This document shows positions 9,414 to 29,886 of a stretch of DNA of 32,000 bases, one piece after another. The position numbers and the translations under genes were made by a program. Numbering within the stretch: the stretch's first letter is position 1; each line of letters begins with the position of its first letter. Origin of the DNA: an uncultured Chloroflexia bacterium (lineage in GTDB: Bacteria; Chloroflexota; Ktedonobacteria; Ktedonobacterales; JADMIN01); assembly GCA_963718915.1 (NCBI GenBank), contig CAVRAI010000001.1:120001-152000 (forward strand), given 5' to 3'. Under the pieces are notes generated by a model. That model was not told the origin of the DNA, searched no databases, and was given only the letters and a program-made list of their open reading frames with translations.

Positions 9414-10733
9414 TCAAGCGGTATGGACGAAGCCCAGCAGCGGAATGTCCATGGCCGAGGTCGTCAGCGTGACGCTGGACGATAGGCCGCCACCCATGCC
9501 GACACGCACCGCCGTCAGCGTGAATGGCCCGGCGCCCACCGCGCCAACGTCATTCCAGCCAGCGCTATCTTCGTTGGCTCCCTGCGCACTGCTGGCTACA
9601 ACCAGCGTCGAGCCGTCAGGCGACCACGCCACCGGATCGCCAGCAAGCGCGATGGGCGTCGCGGTATCATGCAGCGCATCGATCAGTTCATAGGGCGCTT
9701 TACCCTCGCCAAACTCGCCAGCGACGATGGCCTGGGTCGTGCCGGGTCGCCAGAGCAGCGAGGAGATGTTGCTCTGGGGGAGCAGCGACGTCAGATGATG
9801 GAGCGGCGTCACCGCGCCTGTCGTGTTGTTGATGAGCGCGGCCAGCGGCGTGAATGGCGTAATCGGAGCCTGCGTATCTTGCCCATCGTAGTACAGCGTC
9901 CAGTGGCCACCGGGTAGCACGCTGAAGGTTCCCTGGTAGCCATAGCCGCGCAGCGTAGCGATTGGCCGTACCTGATTGGTCGTCACATCCACGCTCGACA
10001 GCATGACCCACGTCCCCGCGCTCGGAGCTGGCGTGGCGAGAGCATGTGTCCCCGGTGTGCCTGATCTGTCGGGAAATTGTGCGATGGCGACGTGGGTCGC
10101 GTCAATCCAGCCGAAGGGGCCATCCAACGGCGGAATTTTGGCGAGCGATGTCGTATCCTGCGGGGTATAGAGCGCTGCCCGTGTCGCCACATTGATGCAC
10201 AGCACATCGCCGGAACCACGGAGCGCGAGATAGCGCTGACCAGGCGACCAACTGATGTCGGAATCACCGACGCCTTTCACATCAGTGGCGCTACGCACGC
10301 CCGATGCGGCGTCAATCGTCGTGACCTGCGCATACTCAAAGTAGGCGAGATGCCTGCCATCAGGGGATGCGCCAGCGGTCCAGAGACCCTCTAGGGGAAA
10401 TCCCACCAGTGGGATCGGCGTGCCAGCCAGGTTTGTCCTGCCATCCAGGCTGACGACATGCAGCAGAGAGTCCGGGCCGATATAGGCAACGCGCGGATCG
10501 CTAAAGGCGGGCAATGGTCGCGGCGAGGGATTGGCAGGTGGCGTCACGGTTGGCATACCCTTGCGAGGATCGACTCCATGCCATTTGGCGGGCAGCGTGG
10601 CGGTTGGACTCGCGCCAGACTGGCCGACCGACGATCCGCCGGGCGCTCCGCAGGCGACAAGCGCCAGCAGCCCCACAGCCAGCAGCGCGCGATAGAGCAT
10701 CCGCGCTCGTTCCGCCGGGTATCTCTTCGTCAT
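9414..10733 (-). CDS. Lipoprotein with PD40/TolB-like beta-propeller repeats
   Basis: Track ORF 9414..10802 trimmed to the ATG at 10733 (GAGGAGAA SD). Signal peptide with lipobox LLALVAC. Repeated SPDG-type motifs (ASPDGRHLAY, WSPGQRYLAL, WSPDGSTLVV). Confidence 0.65.
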   Translation of the reverse strand: MTKRYPAERARMLYRALLAVGLLALVACGAPGGSSVGQSGASPTATLPAKWHGVDPRKGMPTVTPPANPSPRPLPAFSDPRVAYIGPDSLLHVVSLDGRTNLAGTPIPLVGFPLEGLWTAGASPDGRHLAYFEYAQVTTIDAASGVRSATDVKGVGDSDISWSPGQRYLALRGSGDVLCINVATRAALYTPQDTTSLAKIPPLDGPFGWIDATHVAIAQFPDRSGTPGTHALATPAPSAGTWVMLSSVDVTTNQVRPIATLRGYGYQGTFSVLPGGHWTLYYDGQDTQAPITPFTPLAALINNTTGAVTPLHHLTSLLPQSNISSLLWRPGTTQAIVAGEFGEGKAPYELIDALHDTATPIALAGDPVAWSPDGSTLVVASSAQGANEDSAGWNDVGAVGAGPFTLTAVRVGMGGGLSSSVTLTTSAMDIPLLGFVHTA

Positions 10734-10936: not shown

Positions 10937-11389
10937 ATGAGCAATCCACTGGAGGACGCGGGCTACCGGCTGACGGAGCCACGTCGCCGTGTGATGGAGG
11001 CGTTGCGAGAGGCGTCGGGGCCGCTGACGGCGCAGGATGTGGCCGAGCGAGCGGGCGCGAGCGTCGCCTCCACCTATCGCGTGTTGGCGCTGCTGGTGGA
11101 GCTTGGGCTGGTGAGCGAGACGCCCGACGACGGGGAGGCGCTGCCCGGCTGTGAGACGCGCGGACGCCACTACGCGCTCTGCACCGCGCTGGAGCATCAC
11201 CATCACTTCTTCTGCCGGTCGTGTCACGCGACGCTGGAGGTGTCGTGCGAGGCGGTGGAACAGGCGTTGACGCAGCTTGCGCAGGCAACGGGATTCCGAC
11301 TGGAACAACACGATATCATGCTGCGCGGGCAGTGTCCGGCATGCGCGCTGGCGACTGGCATGGGCGGCGCTAAAGGGGTACAGGCATGA
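10937..11389 (+). CDS. zur: Fur-family metalloregulator, probably Zur
   Basis: DNA-binding region GYRLTEPRRRVMEAL...LTAQDV, metal sites HHHHFFCRSC and GQCPAC. Translationally coupled (ATGA at 11386-11389) to a ZIP zinc transporter, hence the Zur assignment. Confidence 0.8.
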   Translation: MSNPLEDAGYRLTEPRRRVMEALREASGPLTAQDVAERAGASVASTYRVLALLVELGLVSETPDDGEALPGCETRGRHYALCTALEHHHHFFCRSCHATLEVSCEAVEQALTQLAQATGFRLEQHDIMLRGQCPACALATGMGGAKGVQA

Positions 11390-12111
11390 TCGCGGCGCTG
11401 GTATCGCTCAGCACATTTTTCTCGACGCTCTTTGGCGGCCTCTTCGCGCTACGCCACAGCAAGCGGCTGCACCTCATCATGGGGTTCACGGCGGGCGTGC
11501 TGGTGGGGCTGGTCGCCTTTGACCTGCTCCCCGAAATCTTCGCGCAGGTTCACGAGCAAAACATCAACAGCGTTTTCCCGATGCTGGCGCTGGTGGGCGG
11601 GTTTCTGCTGTTCCACATCGCCGAAAAGAGCATGCTTATCCATCATGGCGACGCCGAGCAATATACCGATAACAAGCGCCCGACCGTTGGGCTGCTCTCG
11701 GCGCTGGCGCTTTCGGGCCACAGCTTTCTCGATGGCGTCGGCATCGGCCTGGGCTTCCAGGTCAACGCGGCGGTGGGCATTGTCGTCGCCATCGCGGTCG
11801 TCGCCCACGACTTCTCCGACGGGCTGAATACAGTCACACTGATGCTCATCAACCGCAATACCAATCGTCGCGCCTTCGGTCTCTTGCTAGTCGATGCCGT
11901 CGCGCCGGTGCTTGGCGCGCTCTCGACGCTGCTTTTCACGATTCCCGCAGCCTGGCTGCCGATCTATCTGGGATTCTTCGCGGGCTTCCTGCTCTATATC
12001 GGCGCCAGCGATATCCTGCCTGAGGCGCATAGTGAGCGCAGCACGCCAACCACGCTGCTGCTGACGGTCCTCGGCGCGACCTTCGCCTTCCTGGTCACCC
12101 GCTTCGTGTAA
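11386..12111 (+). CDS. ZIP-family divalent metal (zinc) transporter, ZupT-like
   Basis: 241 aa and polytopic. Motifs GHSFLDGVGIGLGF and AVVAHDFSDGL are characteristic of ZIP/ZupT permeases. Confidence 0.85.
   Translation: MIAALVSLSTFFSTLFGGLFALRHSKRLHLIMGFTAGVLVGLVAFDLLPEIFAQVHEQNINSVFPMLALVGGFLLFHIAEKSMLIHHGDAEQYTDNKRPTVGLLSALALSGHSFLDGVGIGLGFQVNAAVGIVVAIAVVAHDFSDGLNTVTLMLINRNTNRRAFGLLLVDAVAPVLGALSTLLFTIPAAWLPIYLGFFAGFLLYIGASDILPEAHSERSTPTTLLLTVLGATFAFLVTRFV
12079..12110. repeat. Left copy of a 32-bp perfect direct repeat (38 bp with 2 mismatches from 12073)
   Basis: ACCTTCGCCTTCCTGGTCACCCGCTTCGTGTA is identical at 12079-12110 and 12889-12920. The left copy forms the 3' end of the ZIP gene. 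Confidence 0.95.
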
Positions 12112-12211
12112 CGGGGGGAAGCGTAACTGCTACATCGCTGCTGGTTGTGAGATACTGATGTCACTTATGTCACTCAACAGTAGGCCATTAGCCTCCTGAA
12201 AGATTGGTTCT

Positions 12212-12442
12212 ATGACTACAGAAGAAATCACTCTTCGAGTAACTCCAGAGGCTGCCGAGGCGTTCCGGCGAGCGTCGCCTGCGGATCAACTGAAACTCGA
12301 AACGCTTGTGAGCCTTCAGTTACTGGCAAAGCTCCAGCCGCCACGCCCACTGGACGAAATCATCGAAGATATCAGCAAACATGCGCAGGAAGCGGGCCTC
12401 ACGCCAGAACTGCTTGAAGAGTTACTTCGTGACGACGCCTGA
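12212..12442 (+). CDS. Small antitoxin-like protein (paralog of 638..904)
   Basis: 76 aa, collinear similarity to the 638..904 product. Sits immediately upstream of, and overlapping, the PIN gene. Confidence 0.7.
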   Translation: MTTEEITLRVTPEAAEAFRRASPADQLKLETLVSLQLLAKLQPPRPLDEIIEDISKHAQEAGLTPELLEELLRDDA

Positions 12443-12881
12443 GTCTAAAGACACCGTTCCACCGCAGGGATTACGTGTCGTTTGCGATACAAATGTGCTG
12501 GTGAGCGCTGTGATGTTTCCGCAGAGCGTTCCTGGCCGTGCGTTTGCCTATGCGCGTCATGCGGGAAAATTGTTGACGACTCCTGAGCTTGCCAGCGAAT
12601 TGCGAGACGTGCTTTTGCGCCCCAAGGTGGCTCGATATATAACAGGAGACCTGAGAGACGAATTCCTGGCGGCCTATCTCTCAATGGCTGAGTTCGTAGT
12701 GACAACCGAACAGATAACTGCCTGCCGCGATCCTAAAGATAATCATGTGCTGGAGGCAGCGATAGATGGGCAAGCAACATGCATTCTGAGTGGGGATAAA
12801 GACCTGCTGGTGCTGAACCCATTTCGAGACATTCCAATTCTCAGCCCAAGCGAGTTTCTTGGCGTCTATCTTCCATCGTGA
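12429..12881 (+). CDS. PIN-domain toxin (PIN_3/TIGR00305-like), intact copy
   Basis: Motifs VVCDTNVLVSAVMF, RDPKDNHVLEAA, LSGDKDLLVL and the terminal IPILSPSEFL. The track start is the ATG at 12381. An in-frame GTG at 12429 gives the usual short overlap with the antitoxin, so the start is uncertain. Confidence 0.8.
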   Translation: MTTPESKDTVPPQGLRVVCDTNVLVSAVMFPQSVPGRAFAYARHAGKLLTTPELASELRDVLLRPKVARYITGDLRDEFLAAYLSMAEFVVTTEQITACRDPKDNHVLEAAIDGQATCILSGDKDLLVLNPFRDIPILSPSEFLGVYLPS

Positions 12882-12888
12882 AGGCACA

Positions 12889-12920
12889 ACCTTCGCCTTC
12901 CTGGTCACCCGCTTCGTGTA
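12889..12920. repeat. Right copy of the 32-bp direct repeat
   Basis: Identical to 12079-12110. Contains the last 16 nt (including the stop) of the convergent LLM oxidoreductase gene, and a ZIP-frame ...TRFV-TAG ending. Confidence 0.95.
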
Positions 12921-13819
12921 GCATTGGCTCCTCGTGCCCTGGCCACCTGTTCGCGCACCGCTGGAATTACCTCGTTGGCGAAGCGCGCGACCTGCTCGGC
13001 AGGATCACCAGATGGGGCGAAGATGTAGGTGTCCATGCCCTGTTCGAGCGACAGTGCGGTCAGCTCATCCACCCACTGCTCCACTGGCCCATCCAGAAAG
13101 CCGCCAGAGAGGCCATCGCTGATGCGGCCCATCACGTTGTAGATGCGACGTACGGCGGCGGGGTCGCGCTCGGCGCTCTGGATGCCCTCATCAATAATCC
13201 GCTGCAATGCGGGCAGACGCTCCGGCGCCACATAGGCGGACGACGGAACCCAGCCGTCGGCCTTACGCCCAATCAGATTGAGCATCTTCGGGCCGGTCGC
13301 GCCAATCCAGATGCTAATGGGATGGGCGGGCTGTGGCCCAGGGTGTACCCCCGCCAGCGAATAGTATTGTCCTGTAAATCGGACGCCCCGCCGGTCGCTC
13401 CACATCAGCCGCAGCACCGTGATCGCCTCCTCCAGCGCCGCGAGCGCCTCACGCGGACTCCGCCGTGGGCCGCCCATCGCCACGATGGCATCCCAGAAAG
13501 CGCCCGCGCCCAGCCCCAGCTCAAAGCGCCCGCCACTCAGTATGTCGAGCGAGGCGGCCGCCTTCGCCAGAACAGCGGGCGGACGCAGCGGAAGGCTCGC
13601 GACATCGGGGAAGATGCGGACGCGCCGTGTCTGCGCCGCAATCGCAGCTAGCAACGTCCAGGTATCGAGAAAGCGGCGTTGATAGGGGTGATCCTGGATG
13701 CCTATCAGGTCAATGCCCTGGTCATCCACCTGGCGCGCCAGGCGCATCATGCCAGCAATATCGCTGGCGTCGGGAATCAGAAAATAGCCGAATTGGAGTG
13801 ATTGGCCATAGTCGGGCAT
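12905..13819 (-). CDS. LLM-class (luciferase-like) flavin/F420-dependent oxidoreductase
   Basis: 304 aa with AGGAGG SD. Motifs QFGYFL, IDLIGIQDHP and LSGGRFELGLGAGAF are typical of the luciferase-like monooxygenase class. Confidence 0.85.
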   Translation of the reverse strand: MPDYGQSLQFGYFLIPDASDIAGMMRLARQVDDQGIDLIGIQDHPYQRRFLDTWTLLAAIAAQTRRVRIFPDVASLPLRPPAVLAKAAASLDILSGGRFELGLGAGAFWDAIVAMGGPRRSPREALAALEEAITVLRLMWSDRRGVRFTGQYYSLAGVHPGPQPAHPISIWIGATGPKMLNLIGRKADGWVPSSAYVAPERLPALQRIIDEGIQSAERDPAAVRRIYNVMGRISDGLSGGFLDGPVEQWVDELTALSLEQGMDTYIFAPSGDPAEQVARFANEVIPAVREQVARARGANATRSG

Positions 13820-13895
13820 AGGGAACCTCCTGTGCGACCTGCTTTTCTAGCATCCTTGAGCTATCTTCGCACAAGCGATTCCCCGCTACAACAGC

Positions 13896-14471
13896 TCAGG
13901 GAAGCAGGCCAAGGTACTGCGCGAGGAAGTAGCCGAACGCCAGCAGACCAGCGCCAATGCAGTAATACGCGAAAGGGTCCAGCGATTGCGTCTCGAAGTA
14001 GCGCATGAGGAAGCGCACCGAGAGATACGCCGCCACGCCCGCAATCACGCCGCCGATGAGCGCGAGTACGAGGATCTGCGTGCCCGCGCCGAAGAGCTTG
14101 GGAATCTCGAGCAGTCCCGCCGCCAGGATGATAGGAGTGGCCAGCAGAAACGAGAAGCGCGCCGCCGACTCATGGCTTAGCCCAATGCTCATGCCGGCGA
14201 CCATCGTGATGCCGGAGCGCGAGATACCTGGGAAAAGCGCCAGCGACTGCGCCAGGCCAATCAGCGCCGCCTGCACAAAGCTCATCTCCTGCAATGACTG
14301 ATCGAACTCGGCGTCATCCACCGCACGAACTGGGTCACCAGCGGACTGATAGGCGCCGCCTTGCAGCGCGGTCGCACCGAGGGTTACGCCACTTTTGTTG
14401 ATGGATTGCGCGTGGATGAAGCGTTGACGCCGGGTCAGGCGCTCGGCGGCGAGCAGCACCGCGCCATTCAT
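13896..14471 (-). CDS. uppP: Undecaprenyl-diphosphate phosphatase, C-terminal half (split gene)
   Basis: Contains the second UppP signature LFPGISRSGITMVAG and the C-terminal TM helices. Its ATG overlaps the stop of the upstream half (ATGA at 14471-14468). Confidence 0.8.
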   Translation of the reverse strand: MNGAVLLAAERLTRRQRFIHAQSINKSGVTLGATALQGGAYQSAGDPVRAVDDAEFDQSLQEMSFVQAALIGLAQSLALFPGISRSGITMVAGMSIGLSHESAARFSFLLATPIILAAGLLEIPKLFGAGTQILVLALIGGVIAGVAAYLSVRFLMRYFETQSLDPFAYYCIGAGLLAFGYFLAQYLGLLP

Positions 14472-14869
14472 GCGAGAAACGCCGCCGCCAGAATAGGCGC
14501 GCCAAAGAGCGCCTCGAGTTTGGTCTGGAAAAGCACGCCAATGAGACCGGCGGGCAACGTCCCGACAATCACGAGCGCCAACTGGCGTCCGTAGCCATGT
14601 GGATCGACATCCGGGGTAAATCTTCCCGCGATAAGCACCTTCACCCCGCCTTGTAGCAGATGCACCCAGTCGCGCCAGAAGAATGTCAGCAGCGCCAGCG
14701 CGGTGCCCAGGTGCAGTGTGACGACCAGCGGCAGAAAGGTGTCGCTGCGCAATAGATCGCCCCAGCCTAACAGCCCTGGGATGATGACAGTATGGCCGAG
14801 ACTGCTGACGGGAAAAAGCTCGGCGACGCCCTGCAGAAGGGCCAGAAGCACTACACGCACAGGATCCAT
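14468..14869 (-). CDS. uppP: Undecaprenyl-diphosphate phosphatase, N-terminal half (split gene)
   Basis: Contains the first UppP signature ELFPVSSLGH. Ends ...GAPILAAAFLA-stop exactly where full-length UppP continues with the helix found at the start of the next ORF (MNGAVLLAAERL). Confidence 0.8.
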   Translation of the reverse strand: MDPVRVVLLALLQGVAELFPVSSLGHTVIIPGLLGWGDLLRSDTFLPLVVTLHLGTALALLTFFWRDWVHLLQGGVKVLIAGRFTPDVDPHGYGRQLALVIVGTLPAGLIGVLFQTKLEALFGAPILAAAFLA

Positions 14870-24897: not shown

Positions 24898-25806
24898 ATG
24901 AAGAAGCTGTTGGGTTTCGCATTGCTGATGGTGGCGCTATTCTCGTTGCTCGCGTGTGGCACAATTGGAAGCGGCATTCCAACCCCCGCGGCGCAGCCAA
25001 TTCCGACTCTTGCGCTGCGCACTCAGCCTGCCGCCACGCGAGCGCCATTACTCATCCAATTTTGTAATGATGATACAGGGAGCTTCCCACGCAAAGACTT
25101 CCAGGGCGCCAATCAACTCATGGCATCGAGCCTGGAGCAGGCGGTGAGCGCCAATCAGCGAGGAGTAACACTCTACGCCACCGCCATTACCCATAACACC
25201 TTCGATCCCTCGAATACGCTCAATCCAGCGTTCATCGTTCCCGAAATAAAAGCCTATGAGACACCACCAACTCCTGTTCCAACACATGCCCCGCAAGATC
25301 CCGTGACGGATCCCGCCACAGCTACAGCTATATCGCAACAAACGAGCAGTGGCGTCGCCACGTACAATGGAACAGTCGCCACGCTCGACCAAACAATCGA
25401 CAAGGTCAAAAATGACGTGAAGACTGACGTCGCGCGGCTGACATCATGGAACCCCCGTGTTGATAACATCGCCACCAGCATCCTTGGCTGCTTCCAGTTG
25501 GCAGCTTCACGATTCCAGGGGCAGTCGGGCATTAAGCTGATCTATATTGCGTCCGATCTGGAAAACAACACCGATGTTGATTACACGCAAAGCTTCGTGC
25601 AATCGCATGGTCTGGCTGGGGTGATCGTCCACGTCATTTATTTTGTCAGCCCGAGTGCGTCACGCGACCAGCAAAAACGCGCGAAATGGTGTCCATTCCT
25701 GAAGTCCGCGGGGGCCAGTGTGGTTCTGTTCAGTGATCCCACTGCTTCACCGACGTTGTCAGATGTCTTCAACAAAGATCTGGCGACTCCCCCGCAGTCC
25801 TGTTAA
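24898..25806 (+). CDS. Lipoprotein, possible vWA-like fold (paralog 1)
   Basis: Track ORF 24880..25806 trimmed to MKKLLGFALLMVALFSLLAC (lipobox LLAC). DDTGS resembles the MIDAS DxSxS motif. Later ATAITHNTF and IYIASDLENN resemble the vWA T and D positions. Four conserved Cys residues are shared with paralog 2. Confidence 0.7.
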   Translation: MKKLLGFALLMVALFSLLACGTIGSGIPTPAAQPIPTLALRTQPAATRAPLLIQFCNDDTGSFPRKDFQGANQLMASSLEQAVSANQRGVTLYATAITHNTFDPSNTLNPAFIVPEIKAYETPPTPVPTHAPQDPVTDPATATAISQQTSSGVATYNGTVATLDQTIDKVKNDVKTDVARLTSWNPRVDNIATSILGCFQLAASRFQGQSGIKLIYIASDLENNTDVDYTQSFVQSHGLAGVIVHVIYFVSPSASRDQQKRAKWCPFLKSAGASVVLFSDPTASPTLSDVFNKDLATPPQSC

Positions 25807-26166: not shown

Positions 26167-27102
26167 ATGCTGTCAGCATTCTTGAGTAGCAGGAGTCGCC
26201 AACAGAGCAGAAGTCTCGTCCTCATCTTTGGGCTTATTTGTCTGTTGATATCGCTTATCGCCTGTACAACGATTTCCACGCCCCAGGACACACCGTTACC
26301 AACCATTGCCGCGCATCCACAACCACCGCAAATGCGCCCTCAAGTGCTCATTCAATACTGCGATGACGATACTGGCAGCTACCCACACATGTATTTTGGG
26401 GAAGCCAACCAGCTTATCGCCTCCAGCTTGCAGCAGGCTGTTACGGCCAACCAGCAAGGCGTGACCCTCTATGCGACTGCTATCACCCACGATACCTTCA
26501 ATCCGGTTAATACGCTCAATCCGGCATTTCTCATTCCGTCGATACCGGCCTATCCGACACCGCCAACACCAGCGCCAACCCATGCGTCAGATAACCCCGT
26601 CTTTGACCCTGCTACGGCGACTGCGGTACAGGTTCAGAACGTCAGCAACATAACCACATTCAATAACAGAGTCGCCGCAATAAACCAAACACTCACCAGT
26701 GCTCAGTCGCAGTTGGATAGTGACGTGAAGCGCCTGACATCATGGAAACGCTCCGTAGACCATATCGCGACCAGTGTGCTGGGCTGTTTCCAGTTGGCGG
26801 CTACACGGTTCCAGGGGCAATCAGGCGCTAAAATGCTCTACATCGCCTCTGATCTGGAAAATAACACTGATGTAGACTATACCCAGAACTTTGTGAAAGA
26901 ACAGGAGCTCAAAGATGTGGTGGTTCATGTCATCTACTTCTTTAGCAGCAATGCGGCGCGCGATCAGGTGAAACGATCCAGATGGTGTCCTTATCTCAAA
27001 TCAGCGGGCGCCAGTATGGTCATATTTAGCGATCCAGTCGAGCCGTTGCAGAACAAGGATATGTTCGACGTTGATTTGACCTCGCCTACGCCGAGTTGCT
27101 GA
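26167..27102 (+). CDS. Lipoprotein, possible vWA-like fold (paralog 2)
   Basis: GAGGGGG SD and lipobox LIAC. Collinear with paralog 1 over its whole length (QYCDDDTGSYP, GVTLYATAITH, LGCFQLAATRFQGQSG, YIASDLENNTDVDYTQ, RWCPYLKSAGAS, terminal PSC). Confidence 0.75.
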   Translation: MLSAFLSSRSRQQSRSLVLIFGLICLLISLIACTTISTPQDTPLPTIAAHPQPPQMRPQVLIQYCDDDTGSYPHMYFGEANQLIASSLQQAVTANQQGVTLYATAITHDTFNPVNTLNPAFLIPSIPAYPTPPTPAPTHASDNPVFDPATATAVQVQNVSNITTFNNRVAAINQTLTSAQSQLDSDVKRLTSWKRSVDHIATSVLGCFQLAATRFQGQSGAKMLYIASDLENNTDVDYTQNFVKEQELKDVVVHVIYFFSSNAARDQVKRSRWCPYLKSAGASMVIFSDPVEPLQNKDMFDVDLTSPTPSC

Positions 27103-29846: not shown

Positions 29847-29886
29847 GACATTCGCGGACATTCGCGGACATTCGCGGACATTCGCG
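29847..29886. repeat. Perfect 10-bp tandem repeat GACATTCGCG x4 in the ADH leader
   Basis: Counted directly. On the gene (minus) strand it reads CGCGAATGTC x4, which places TGTCCGC three times at exact 10-bp phasing. Confidence 0.95.

Follow-up and report, generated by a model that had tools for sequence, protein, structure and literature searches.

How stand-alone toxin–antitoxin (TA) islets enter chromosomes without mobile machinery is an old question, and reviews of the subject say only that the islets were acquired horizontally. The question arises in an explicit form in a stretch of 32,000 nucleotides (hereafter the window) from an uncultured Chloroflexia bacterium of the order Ktedonobacterales (contig CAVRAI010000001.1, positions 120,001 to 152,000), where a small cassette made of a predicted PIN-family toxin gene and its upstream partner lies between two convergent genes, a ZIP-family metal transporter and a luciferase-like (LLM) oxidoreductase, with a copy of the same short sequence on each side. 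Our analysis indicates that this TA-like module of about 0.77 kb was probably inserted, with a long target duplication, at a point where the tails of the ZIP and LLM genes overlapped by 17 nt. The locus offers an explicit scar of integration together with an empty site, and the same type of scar is found around homologous cassettes at other loci and around an unrelated cassette at this site.

The scar is marked by a 32-mer, ACCTTCGCCTTCCTGGTCACCCGCTTCGTGTA, present in two exact copies at 12079–12110 and 12889–12920, precisely as reported in the initial annotation of the window. The search for repeats in the source genome was confined to these 32 kb, where no third copy was found with up to three mismatches allowed; 100 shuffles of the sequence gave 0 matches. 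The match can be lengthened to 38 nt at the cost of two mismatches, which gives 36/38 identity between the copies, including the 32 exact nt. The initial annotation had this length right and the start wrong. Alignment with two orthologous contigs, L001 and L081, places the duplicated unit at 12074–12111 and 12884–12921, a length of 38 nt that counts the last base of the stop codon. In the match as first described, the first G agrees by chance in the window only, the base preceding the right copy being G there and C in the other alleles. The same comparison of alleles bounds the insert at 12112–12883 (772 nt), and 778 nt separate the exact 32-mer copies. The features of the locus, in window positions, are as follows.

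10937–11389, plus strand: Fur-family (Zur-like) regulator gene (PF01475 FUR, E = 4e-16), overlapping the start of ZIP by 4 nt
11386–12111, plus strand: ZIP-family metal transporter gene (PF02535, E = 1e-21; weak ZupT match)
12074–12111, no strand: left repeat copy, the last 12 ZIP codons and the stop, reading …TRFV-TAA (…GATFAFLVTRFV-TAA)
12112–12883, plus strand: inserted cassette of 772 nt and low GC content, comprising an upstream region, the antitoxin-position gene and the PIN toxin gene
12212–12442, plus strand: antitoxin-position gene, a helical protein of 76 aa with no family matches
12429–12881, plus strand: PIN_3-family toxin gene, 150 aa from its GTG start and 166 aa if begun at an ATG further upstream (12381)
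12884–12921, no strand: right repeat copy, whose last 16–17 nt are the LLM C-terminus (…TRSG-stop, minus strand) and whose first 21–22 nt are non-coding
12905–13819, minus strand: LLM oxidoreductase gene (PF00296, E = 2e-46), convergent with ZIP, with the stop complement TCA at 12905–12907

The left copy completes the ZIP gene, and the right copy carries the last 16 nt of LLM and still reads TRFV-TAG in the ZIP frame; both points had been made from the sequence at the outset and stand. Only two credible genes lie between the copies, the 76-aa gene and the PIN_3 gene, as had been claimed, and the lower GC content of this segment, first judged by eye, was measured at 0.50–0.55 versus 0.59–0.73 in the flanks. 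Open reading frame (ORF) and family searches detected no recombinase, transposase, integrase or other mobility gene in the insert and no integrase or other recombinase adjoining it, and no inverted repeat joins the insert ends, which upholds the reported absence of terminal inverted repeats and of a recombinase. The insert has zero matches to Rfam families, and no terminator-like structure at the junction between PIN and LLM is significant.

The check set beforehand as decisive was whether a relative lacking the cassette shows a ZIP/LLM tail overlap with a single copy of the repeat. Relatives were taken from a scan with the ZIP protein, one genome per species, which yielded Ktedonobacterales metagenome-assembled genomes (MAGs); the ZIP orthologues in contigs L001–L003 and L081–L084 have 93–96% amino acid identity. 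One of these MAG contigs, L002 (DASUHD010000108; ZIP 95% aa identity), has the ZIP and LLM genes adjacent, convergent and cassette-free, and carries the repeat once, as …GGTCACCCGCTTCGTGTAACAGCGGCTCC…, aligning with both copies of the window. The ancestral tail overlap proposed from the window is present in L002, its size being 17 nt between the outer edges of the ZIP stop TAA and the LLM stop complement TCA, and not the 16 nt first suggested. Since the repeat is single-copy in this empty site and has a different local sequence at each locus described below, the repeats derive from the target and not from the element.

The repeat–cassette–repeat structure is also present in L001, and in L081 and L162–L168 (seven metagenome samples), with nucleotide identities of the cassette to the window of 83–89% in L001, L081 and L083; the two repeat copies agree at 37/37 positions in L081 and at 35/36 in L001. 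The filled structure occurs in independent assemblies and is therefore not an assembly artefact. The notion of such an artefact, contradicted by the presence of the structure with co-diverged sequence in at least 10 independent assemblies, and that of a non-autonomous transposon of the miniature inverted-repeat type (MITE), acted upon by a transposase in trans and leaving an ordinary target-site duplication, are together the least credible of the explanations that we considered, with hardly any probability. Direct repeats on either side of an insert are the textbook sign of transposition, but terminal inverted repeats are missing here and the duplications, at 33–100 nt, are variable and far longer than those made by transposons.

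In the scenario that we favour, a module of about 0.77 kb with its own upstream region and two genes would have entered where the ZIP and LLM tails overlapped, in an event that would have copied the last 38 nt of ZIP such that the left copy finishes ZIP and the right copy finishes LLM. The insertion would have been carried out by host functions, for which we can envisage two routes. In one, staggered nicks spaced by tens of nucleotides would have produced a break that was filled in and then end-joined to foreign DNA. In the other, replication would have switched template at the ZIP end, copied the cassette and returned to the chromosome 38 nt further upstream. Selection would retain only those events that spare both genes. 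Gene conversion would later keep the copies alike, and the repeats could permit precise loss of the cassette by recombination.

The exact position of the duplication points to one competing explanation. The window-type alleles (those of the window, L001 and L081) have a duplication whose boundary coincides exactly with the ZIP stop, which is where homology between donor and recipient would end if the cassette had been imported by recombination with ZIP as its anchor at one end and an illegitimate join, 38 nt before the ZIP stop, at the other. Such homology-facilitated illegitimate recombination presupposes that the cassette first resided downstream of a non-overlapping ZIP gene in a relative. 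It would explain the variable repeat length without a recombinase, and suitable neighbourhoods do exist. The outgroup contigs L004, L005 and L084 have ZIP without LLM behind it, and in L005 and L084 there is a free spacer in that place; the same cassettes follow ZIP in lineages of varied depth, for example in L086, where a DUF4258/zinc-ribbon cassette lies downstream of a more distant ZIP gene (85% nt identical). Against this stand the absence of any ZIP–cassette donor lacking the right copy among the contigs found (even L082 and L083, where LLM is gone, retain a decayed right copy) and the left junction of another allele, L003, which may hold about 14 nt of LLM-side sequence (P = 0.07) that ZIP-anchored import does not predict. 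We consider an illegitimate event at this site with ZIP as the anchor unlikely, and treat it all the same as a serious alternative.

The L003 allele contains a different insert of about 760 nt in the ZIP/LLM site, on the opposite strand. This insert too is a TA-type pair, its genes encoding a zinc-ribbon protein and a DUF4258 protein (PF14076, E = 4e-7). About 87 nt of the ZIP tail are duplicated around it (76/87 identity). We had considered that the left junction was identical for both types of cassette and dropped this idea, as the L003 duplication may run on beyond the stop by those ~14 nt. With these alternative alleles and cassettes, the ZIP 3' end amounts to a long-lived hotspot. One of the outgroups, L005, also contains a duplication of about 190 nt (10054–10240 and 10404–10591; 96–97% identity, 350 nt apart) that looks tRNA-like, with a GGTTCGAATCC-type T-arm on the complementary strand.

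The same signature was sought in contigs with homologues of the PIN gene, by searching for a direct repeat upstream of the antitoxin gene and downstream of PIN and comparing the results with shuffled flanks. A second locus, L161 (PIN 69% identical), has a 33-nt repeat (29/33) with a spacing of 809 nt, and this repeat is the 3' coding end of a convergent gene of 288 aa, here called gene G. The duplicated boundary next to the antitoxin end falls within gene G, a further point against homology-anchored import. In L177, which is orthologous to the L161 locus, the left copy is more decayed, and in L187 gene G is followed by its neighbour after 96 nt, without a cassette. A motif, AGCAGCCGC, lies just beyond the G stop in L187 and on both sides of the cassette in L161 and L177; because it flanks the cassette on both sides there, the duplication at this second locus was probably about 63 nt long originally. 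In L189–L191 (66–2999) an intein (Intein_splicing and LAGLIDADG_3) is present in the 977-aa product of the gene upstream of G.

At a third locus, L184–L186 (PIN 60% identical), the repeat is about 100 nt long with 87% identity and represents the tail of a tyrosine-recombinase-like ORF together with its stop codon; no tRNA was called at the locus. An element of the IS200/IS605 family of insertion sequences (IS) occupies L184 624–2154 and L185 1–184, and its end meets the left copy of the ~100-nt repeat exactly. It carries a TnpB/OrfB-like gene that is apparently fused to or overlapping with a SnoaL-domain ORF. A longer duplication with a left copy split by the IS was considered and rejected, as there is no match upstream of the IS.

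The flanking-repeat signature is present in 3/4 testable contexts of the PIN cassette and in 1/3 contexts of the DUF4258 cassette, and the length of the duplication varies by event (38, ~33–63, ~87 and ~100 nt). Repeats of at least 24 nt with a spacing of 0.3–5 kb are otherwise rare in 339 kb of related loci. The possibility raised at the start, that the repeat of the window is a common dispersed element, is contradicted by its restriction to this one locus in the 32-kb window and in the 339 kb of relatives. Homology between the cassettes spans the region from the antitoxin gene to 1–2 nt beyond the PIN stop, and the ends of the inserts differ by context: 100, 62 and 70 nt precede the ATG, and the PIN stop is followed by 2, 2 and 131 nt. 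No end motif is common to the cassettes across contexts, and a core motif common to the repeats of different loci, looked for by inspection, was discarded when nothing past a chance 5-mer emerged.

These data bear directly on site-specific recombination, in which the repeats would be attL and attR of a minimal non-autonomous element resembling a cis-mobilizable element (CIME), moved by an integrase acting in trans and carrying a replacement 3' end. Integrative elements typically have direct repeats through which a gene regains its 3' end, and at L184–L186 the repeat is the tail of a recombinase-like ORF. However, no core is common to the repeats of the three loci, whose lengths are unequal (38, ~33–63 and ~100 nt), the empty site has the repeat once, as target sequence, and the insert ends vary in the absence of any integrase in or adjoining the insert, so that we regard this explanation as very unlikely. 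Of the two mechanisms initially put forward, att-like recombination accordingly loses ground to locus-specific repeats and unconserved insert ends, and a staggered break, or replicative copying of the target, fits better.

A two-step origin, in which a small tandem duplication first uncoupled the gene ends and the cassette landed later between the copies, appears more improbable still. Small tandem duplications do happen here, as shown by the 9-nt duplication at 12158–12175, but the scenario demands that insertion hit the exact junction of the copies in separate events, for each of the two cassettes known from this site and again at two other loci, and a bare tandem duplication was present in 0 of more than 10 alleles examined.

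Several observations weigh against insertion with target duplication. The third locus is messy, with the IS605-family element abutting the left copy and 131 nt of extra DNA after PIN. No flanking repeat was found at a fourth PIN locus (L182/L183), and none at DUF4258 cassettes in two other contexts (L192–L196); the signature is either not universal or it decays. Among the alleles of the ZIP/LLM site, the tree supports only the grouping of L002 with L003 (82%) and is otherwise star-like, and because of this L002 may represent either the ancestral empty site or a precise secondary deletion through the repeats, the latter being the unfavourable option. The repeat search covered 32 kb of the source genome, and further copies of the 38-mer are possible elsewhere in it. 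The proposed enzymology of the insertion is a guess.

The age of the insert can be estimated from synonymous divergence (dS). Among the window, L001 and L081, dS is 0.22–0.54 for the antitoxin gene, 0.37–0.43 for PIN and 0.30–0.38 for ZIP. Because the dS of the cassette is about that of ZIP, the insert is as old as the clade and vertically inherited, and not a recent arrival; the insertion is common to at least three other lineages. The ratio of nonsynonymous to synonymous divergence (dN/dS) is 0.02–0.05 for the antitoxin gene and 0.13–0.21 for PIN. Both cassette genes are under purifying selection, which is strong for the antitoxin-position gene, and the insert thus appears functional.

The repeats have diverged less than expected over this time. 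Over the 22 non-coding nucleotides of the right copy, mismatches to the left copy number 2 in the window, 1 in L081 and 3 in L001, compared with a neutral expectation of at least 4–5. L001 has two lineage-specific substitutions (TTCGTGG and CACTCGC), each present in both copies, and this pairing requires at least one event of gene conversion between 38-nt repeats located 0.8 kb apart, or else re-duplication. In L083, where LLM has been lost, the right copy diverged at about the neutral rate.

The allele with the lost oxidoreductase (L082/L083 and L169–L175) is a decaying TA islet. The cassette is kept, with in-frame stops in both of its genes, the entire LLM gene is deleted (corresponding to window positions 12923–13889), the right copy has about 8 substitutions and a 3-nt insertion, and a 9-nt deletion has changed the ZIP end to …RFVG-stop. 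In the L081-type contigs, LLM has been replaced. A perfect right copy is followed by unrelated genes, with the break exactly at the end of the copy, and a 12-nt inverted copy of the 5' part of the repeat abuts the right copy (GCGACCTTCGCC … GGCGAAGGTCGC; L081 4340–4394, also in L162–L168). It forms a strong hairpin (−20.7 kcal/mol, z = −4.9) that looks like a fold-back or template-switch scar at the cassette-junction nucleotide. The genes after the hairpin are a Cys-rich 91-aa ORF and a BrkB/YihY-like gene, plus a DDE transposase in L162.

The predicted function of the cassette follows from its families and arrangement. The PIN protein matches PF13470 with 66.9 bits (cut-off 27) and TIGR00305 with 69.4 bits (cut-off 29.15), and its acidic residues D20, E57, D101/D104 and D123/D125 are conserved; no match to it was found among PDB sequences. 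The family is also present on 87 plasmids, at identities of up to 52%. The PIN gene overlaps the antitoxin-position gene by 14 nt. The 76-aa product of the latter has zero matches in Pfam, NCBIfam and PADLOC; its AlphaFold2 model (pLDDT 80) has four helices, and a comparison with PDB folds gave no significant match. A small partner, 64–71% identical, precedes the PIN gene in four genomic contexts, and the designation as a putative antitoxin relies on this position and co-conservation. Taken together, the cassette would be a type II toxin–antitoxin-like module with a toxin of the PIN_3/TIGR00305 family. Family searches revealed no methyltransferase or restriction domain in the cassette proteins. 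PIN toxins are RNases as far as known, and DNA cutting is not expected of them.

Two further features lie in the upstream region of the cassette.

12146–12165, no strand: imperfect palindrome TGTGAGAT-ACTG-ATGTCACT, overlapping a GATACT −10-like hexamer
12158–12175, no strand: 9-nt tandem duplication ATGTCACTT/ATGTCACTC, in the window only, copying the right arm of the palindrome

The window, L001 and L081 share the palindrome letter for letter, and the pseudogenised allele of L083 has lost it. It is a candidate operator or promoter. The direct repeat ATGTCACT-t-ATGTCACT at 12158–12174, initially proposed as an autoregulatory operator, does exist; it is a duplication private to the window. The 9-nt unit is present in one copy in L001 and L081 and in none in L083, and we therefore ruled out the 8-bp repeat as a conserved operator. 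No consensus sigma-70 promoter was called in the insert.

Insertion with long target duplication is known for restriction–modification (RM) gene complexes (Nobusato et al. 2000, Gene 259:99; Furuta, Abe & Kobayashi 2010, PMC2853133). The RM insertions have long and variable repeats (45–420 bp), often across a stop codon, and keep the targeted gene whole, and DNA double-strand breakage by the restriction enzyme was tentatively suggested as the common cause (PMC2853133). Furuta and coworkers looked for short (< 20 kb) self-contained units without mobility genes, with repeats of more than 30 bp, for which a relative has an empty site. The ZIP/LLM locus presents a self-contained 772-nt unit, 38-nt repeats, the empty site of L002 and a variable, single-copy repeat; RM cargo, which their screen required although it is not a structural feature, is replaced here by a PIN_3 toxin and a small partner. 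The two kinds of insertion are alike in that an addiction-type unit of deviant GC content without mobility genes is flanked by target-derived repeats of more than 30 bp that occur once in an empty-site relative, vary in length from event to event and often span a stop codon. They differ in the TA cargo found here, from which DNA cleavage is not expected, in the tail-to-tail overlap as the target, in the host, which belongs to the Chloroflexota (Ktedonobacterales), and in repeats of 33–100 nt at the short end of the published range. The scar is of a type known from RM genes, now with TA cargo, and not a new kind of element. In the searchable literature, itself incomplete, we found no report of an insertion of a TA module with long target duplication, only RM cases, and no TA cassettes flanked by duplicated gene tails.

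Other known systems resemble the locus in part. Stand-alone TA islets such as ccdO157 (PMC2654758, PMC7167474) are likewise lone TA pairs between housekeeping genes that are variably present, empty or decaying, but the reviews give no target duplication or mechanism of integration for them, whereas the locus described here has an explicit scar. Integrative elements at gene 3' ends (tRNA-type att sites, CIMEs) also have direct repeats that bracket the insert and a restored 3' end; their repeats are borne by the element (attP), constant and dependent on an integrase, unlike the locus-specific, target-derived repeats of this study. In the TA cassettes of chromosomal integrons, an entire TA operon that includes its own promoter forms a small mobile unit (PMC2654758). 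The module shares with them the format of a small, complete TA unit, but there is no attC-like imperfect inverted repeat, integron platform or integrase here, and insertion into integrons does not duplicate tens of target bases.

The mechanism of the RM insertions has awaited explanation since 2000, and a cargo that is not expected to cut DNA, such as the PIN cassette, argues for a host mechanism, which we favour. These results lead us to speculate, quite tentatively, that insertion with long target duplication could be a general, host-driven way in which addiction modules, both TA and RM, settle in packed sites with no need for DNA cutting by the cargo. Gene conversion that keeps the repeats identical would then make such insertions precisely reversible, and overlapping convergent ends could serve as long-lived docking sites at which alternative TA cassettes occur as alleles. 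The locus is in any case a simple system for testing the mechanism of long target duplication. It also shows that overlapping genes can be separated undamaged and that repeats of 38 nt with 0.8 kb between them can undergo concerted evolution across species-level divergence.

Among the neighbouring genes, the Fur-family gene is kept upstream of ZIP in all relatives. The LLM oxidoreductase is probably F420-dependent, with matches to F420 LLM subfamilies below the cut-off. Outside Ktedonobacterales, the closest relatives of the ZIP protein, with 57–68% aa identity over the full length, come mostly from Patescibacteria of the candidate phyla radiation (CPR), including Saccharibacteria, Nomurabacteria, Doudnabacteria and others, and one more comes from a bin labelled Nanoarchaeia, which suggests that the transporter has spread horizontally. 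Beyond LLM, a BacA/UppP (undecaprenyl-diphosphatase) gene on the minus strand (13896–14869) is split into two abutting ORFs near 14473 by a 1-nt deletion (CATGC-GAGAAAC versus CATGCAGAGAAAC in L001, L002 and L169), and is either a frameshifted pseudogene or the product of a sequencing error. Elsewhere in the window there are two tandem arrays, TGCCCGTCA in about 7 copies at 217–279 and GACATTCGCG in 4 copies at 29847–29886, and a 300-nt direct repeat (25418–25717 and 26714–27013; 71% identity, 1296-nt spacing) that is probably a tandem pair of paralogous genes.

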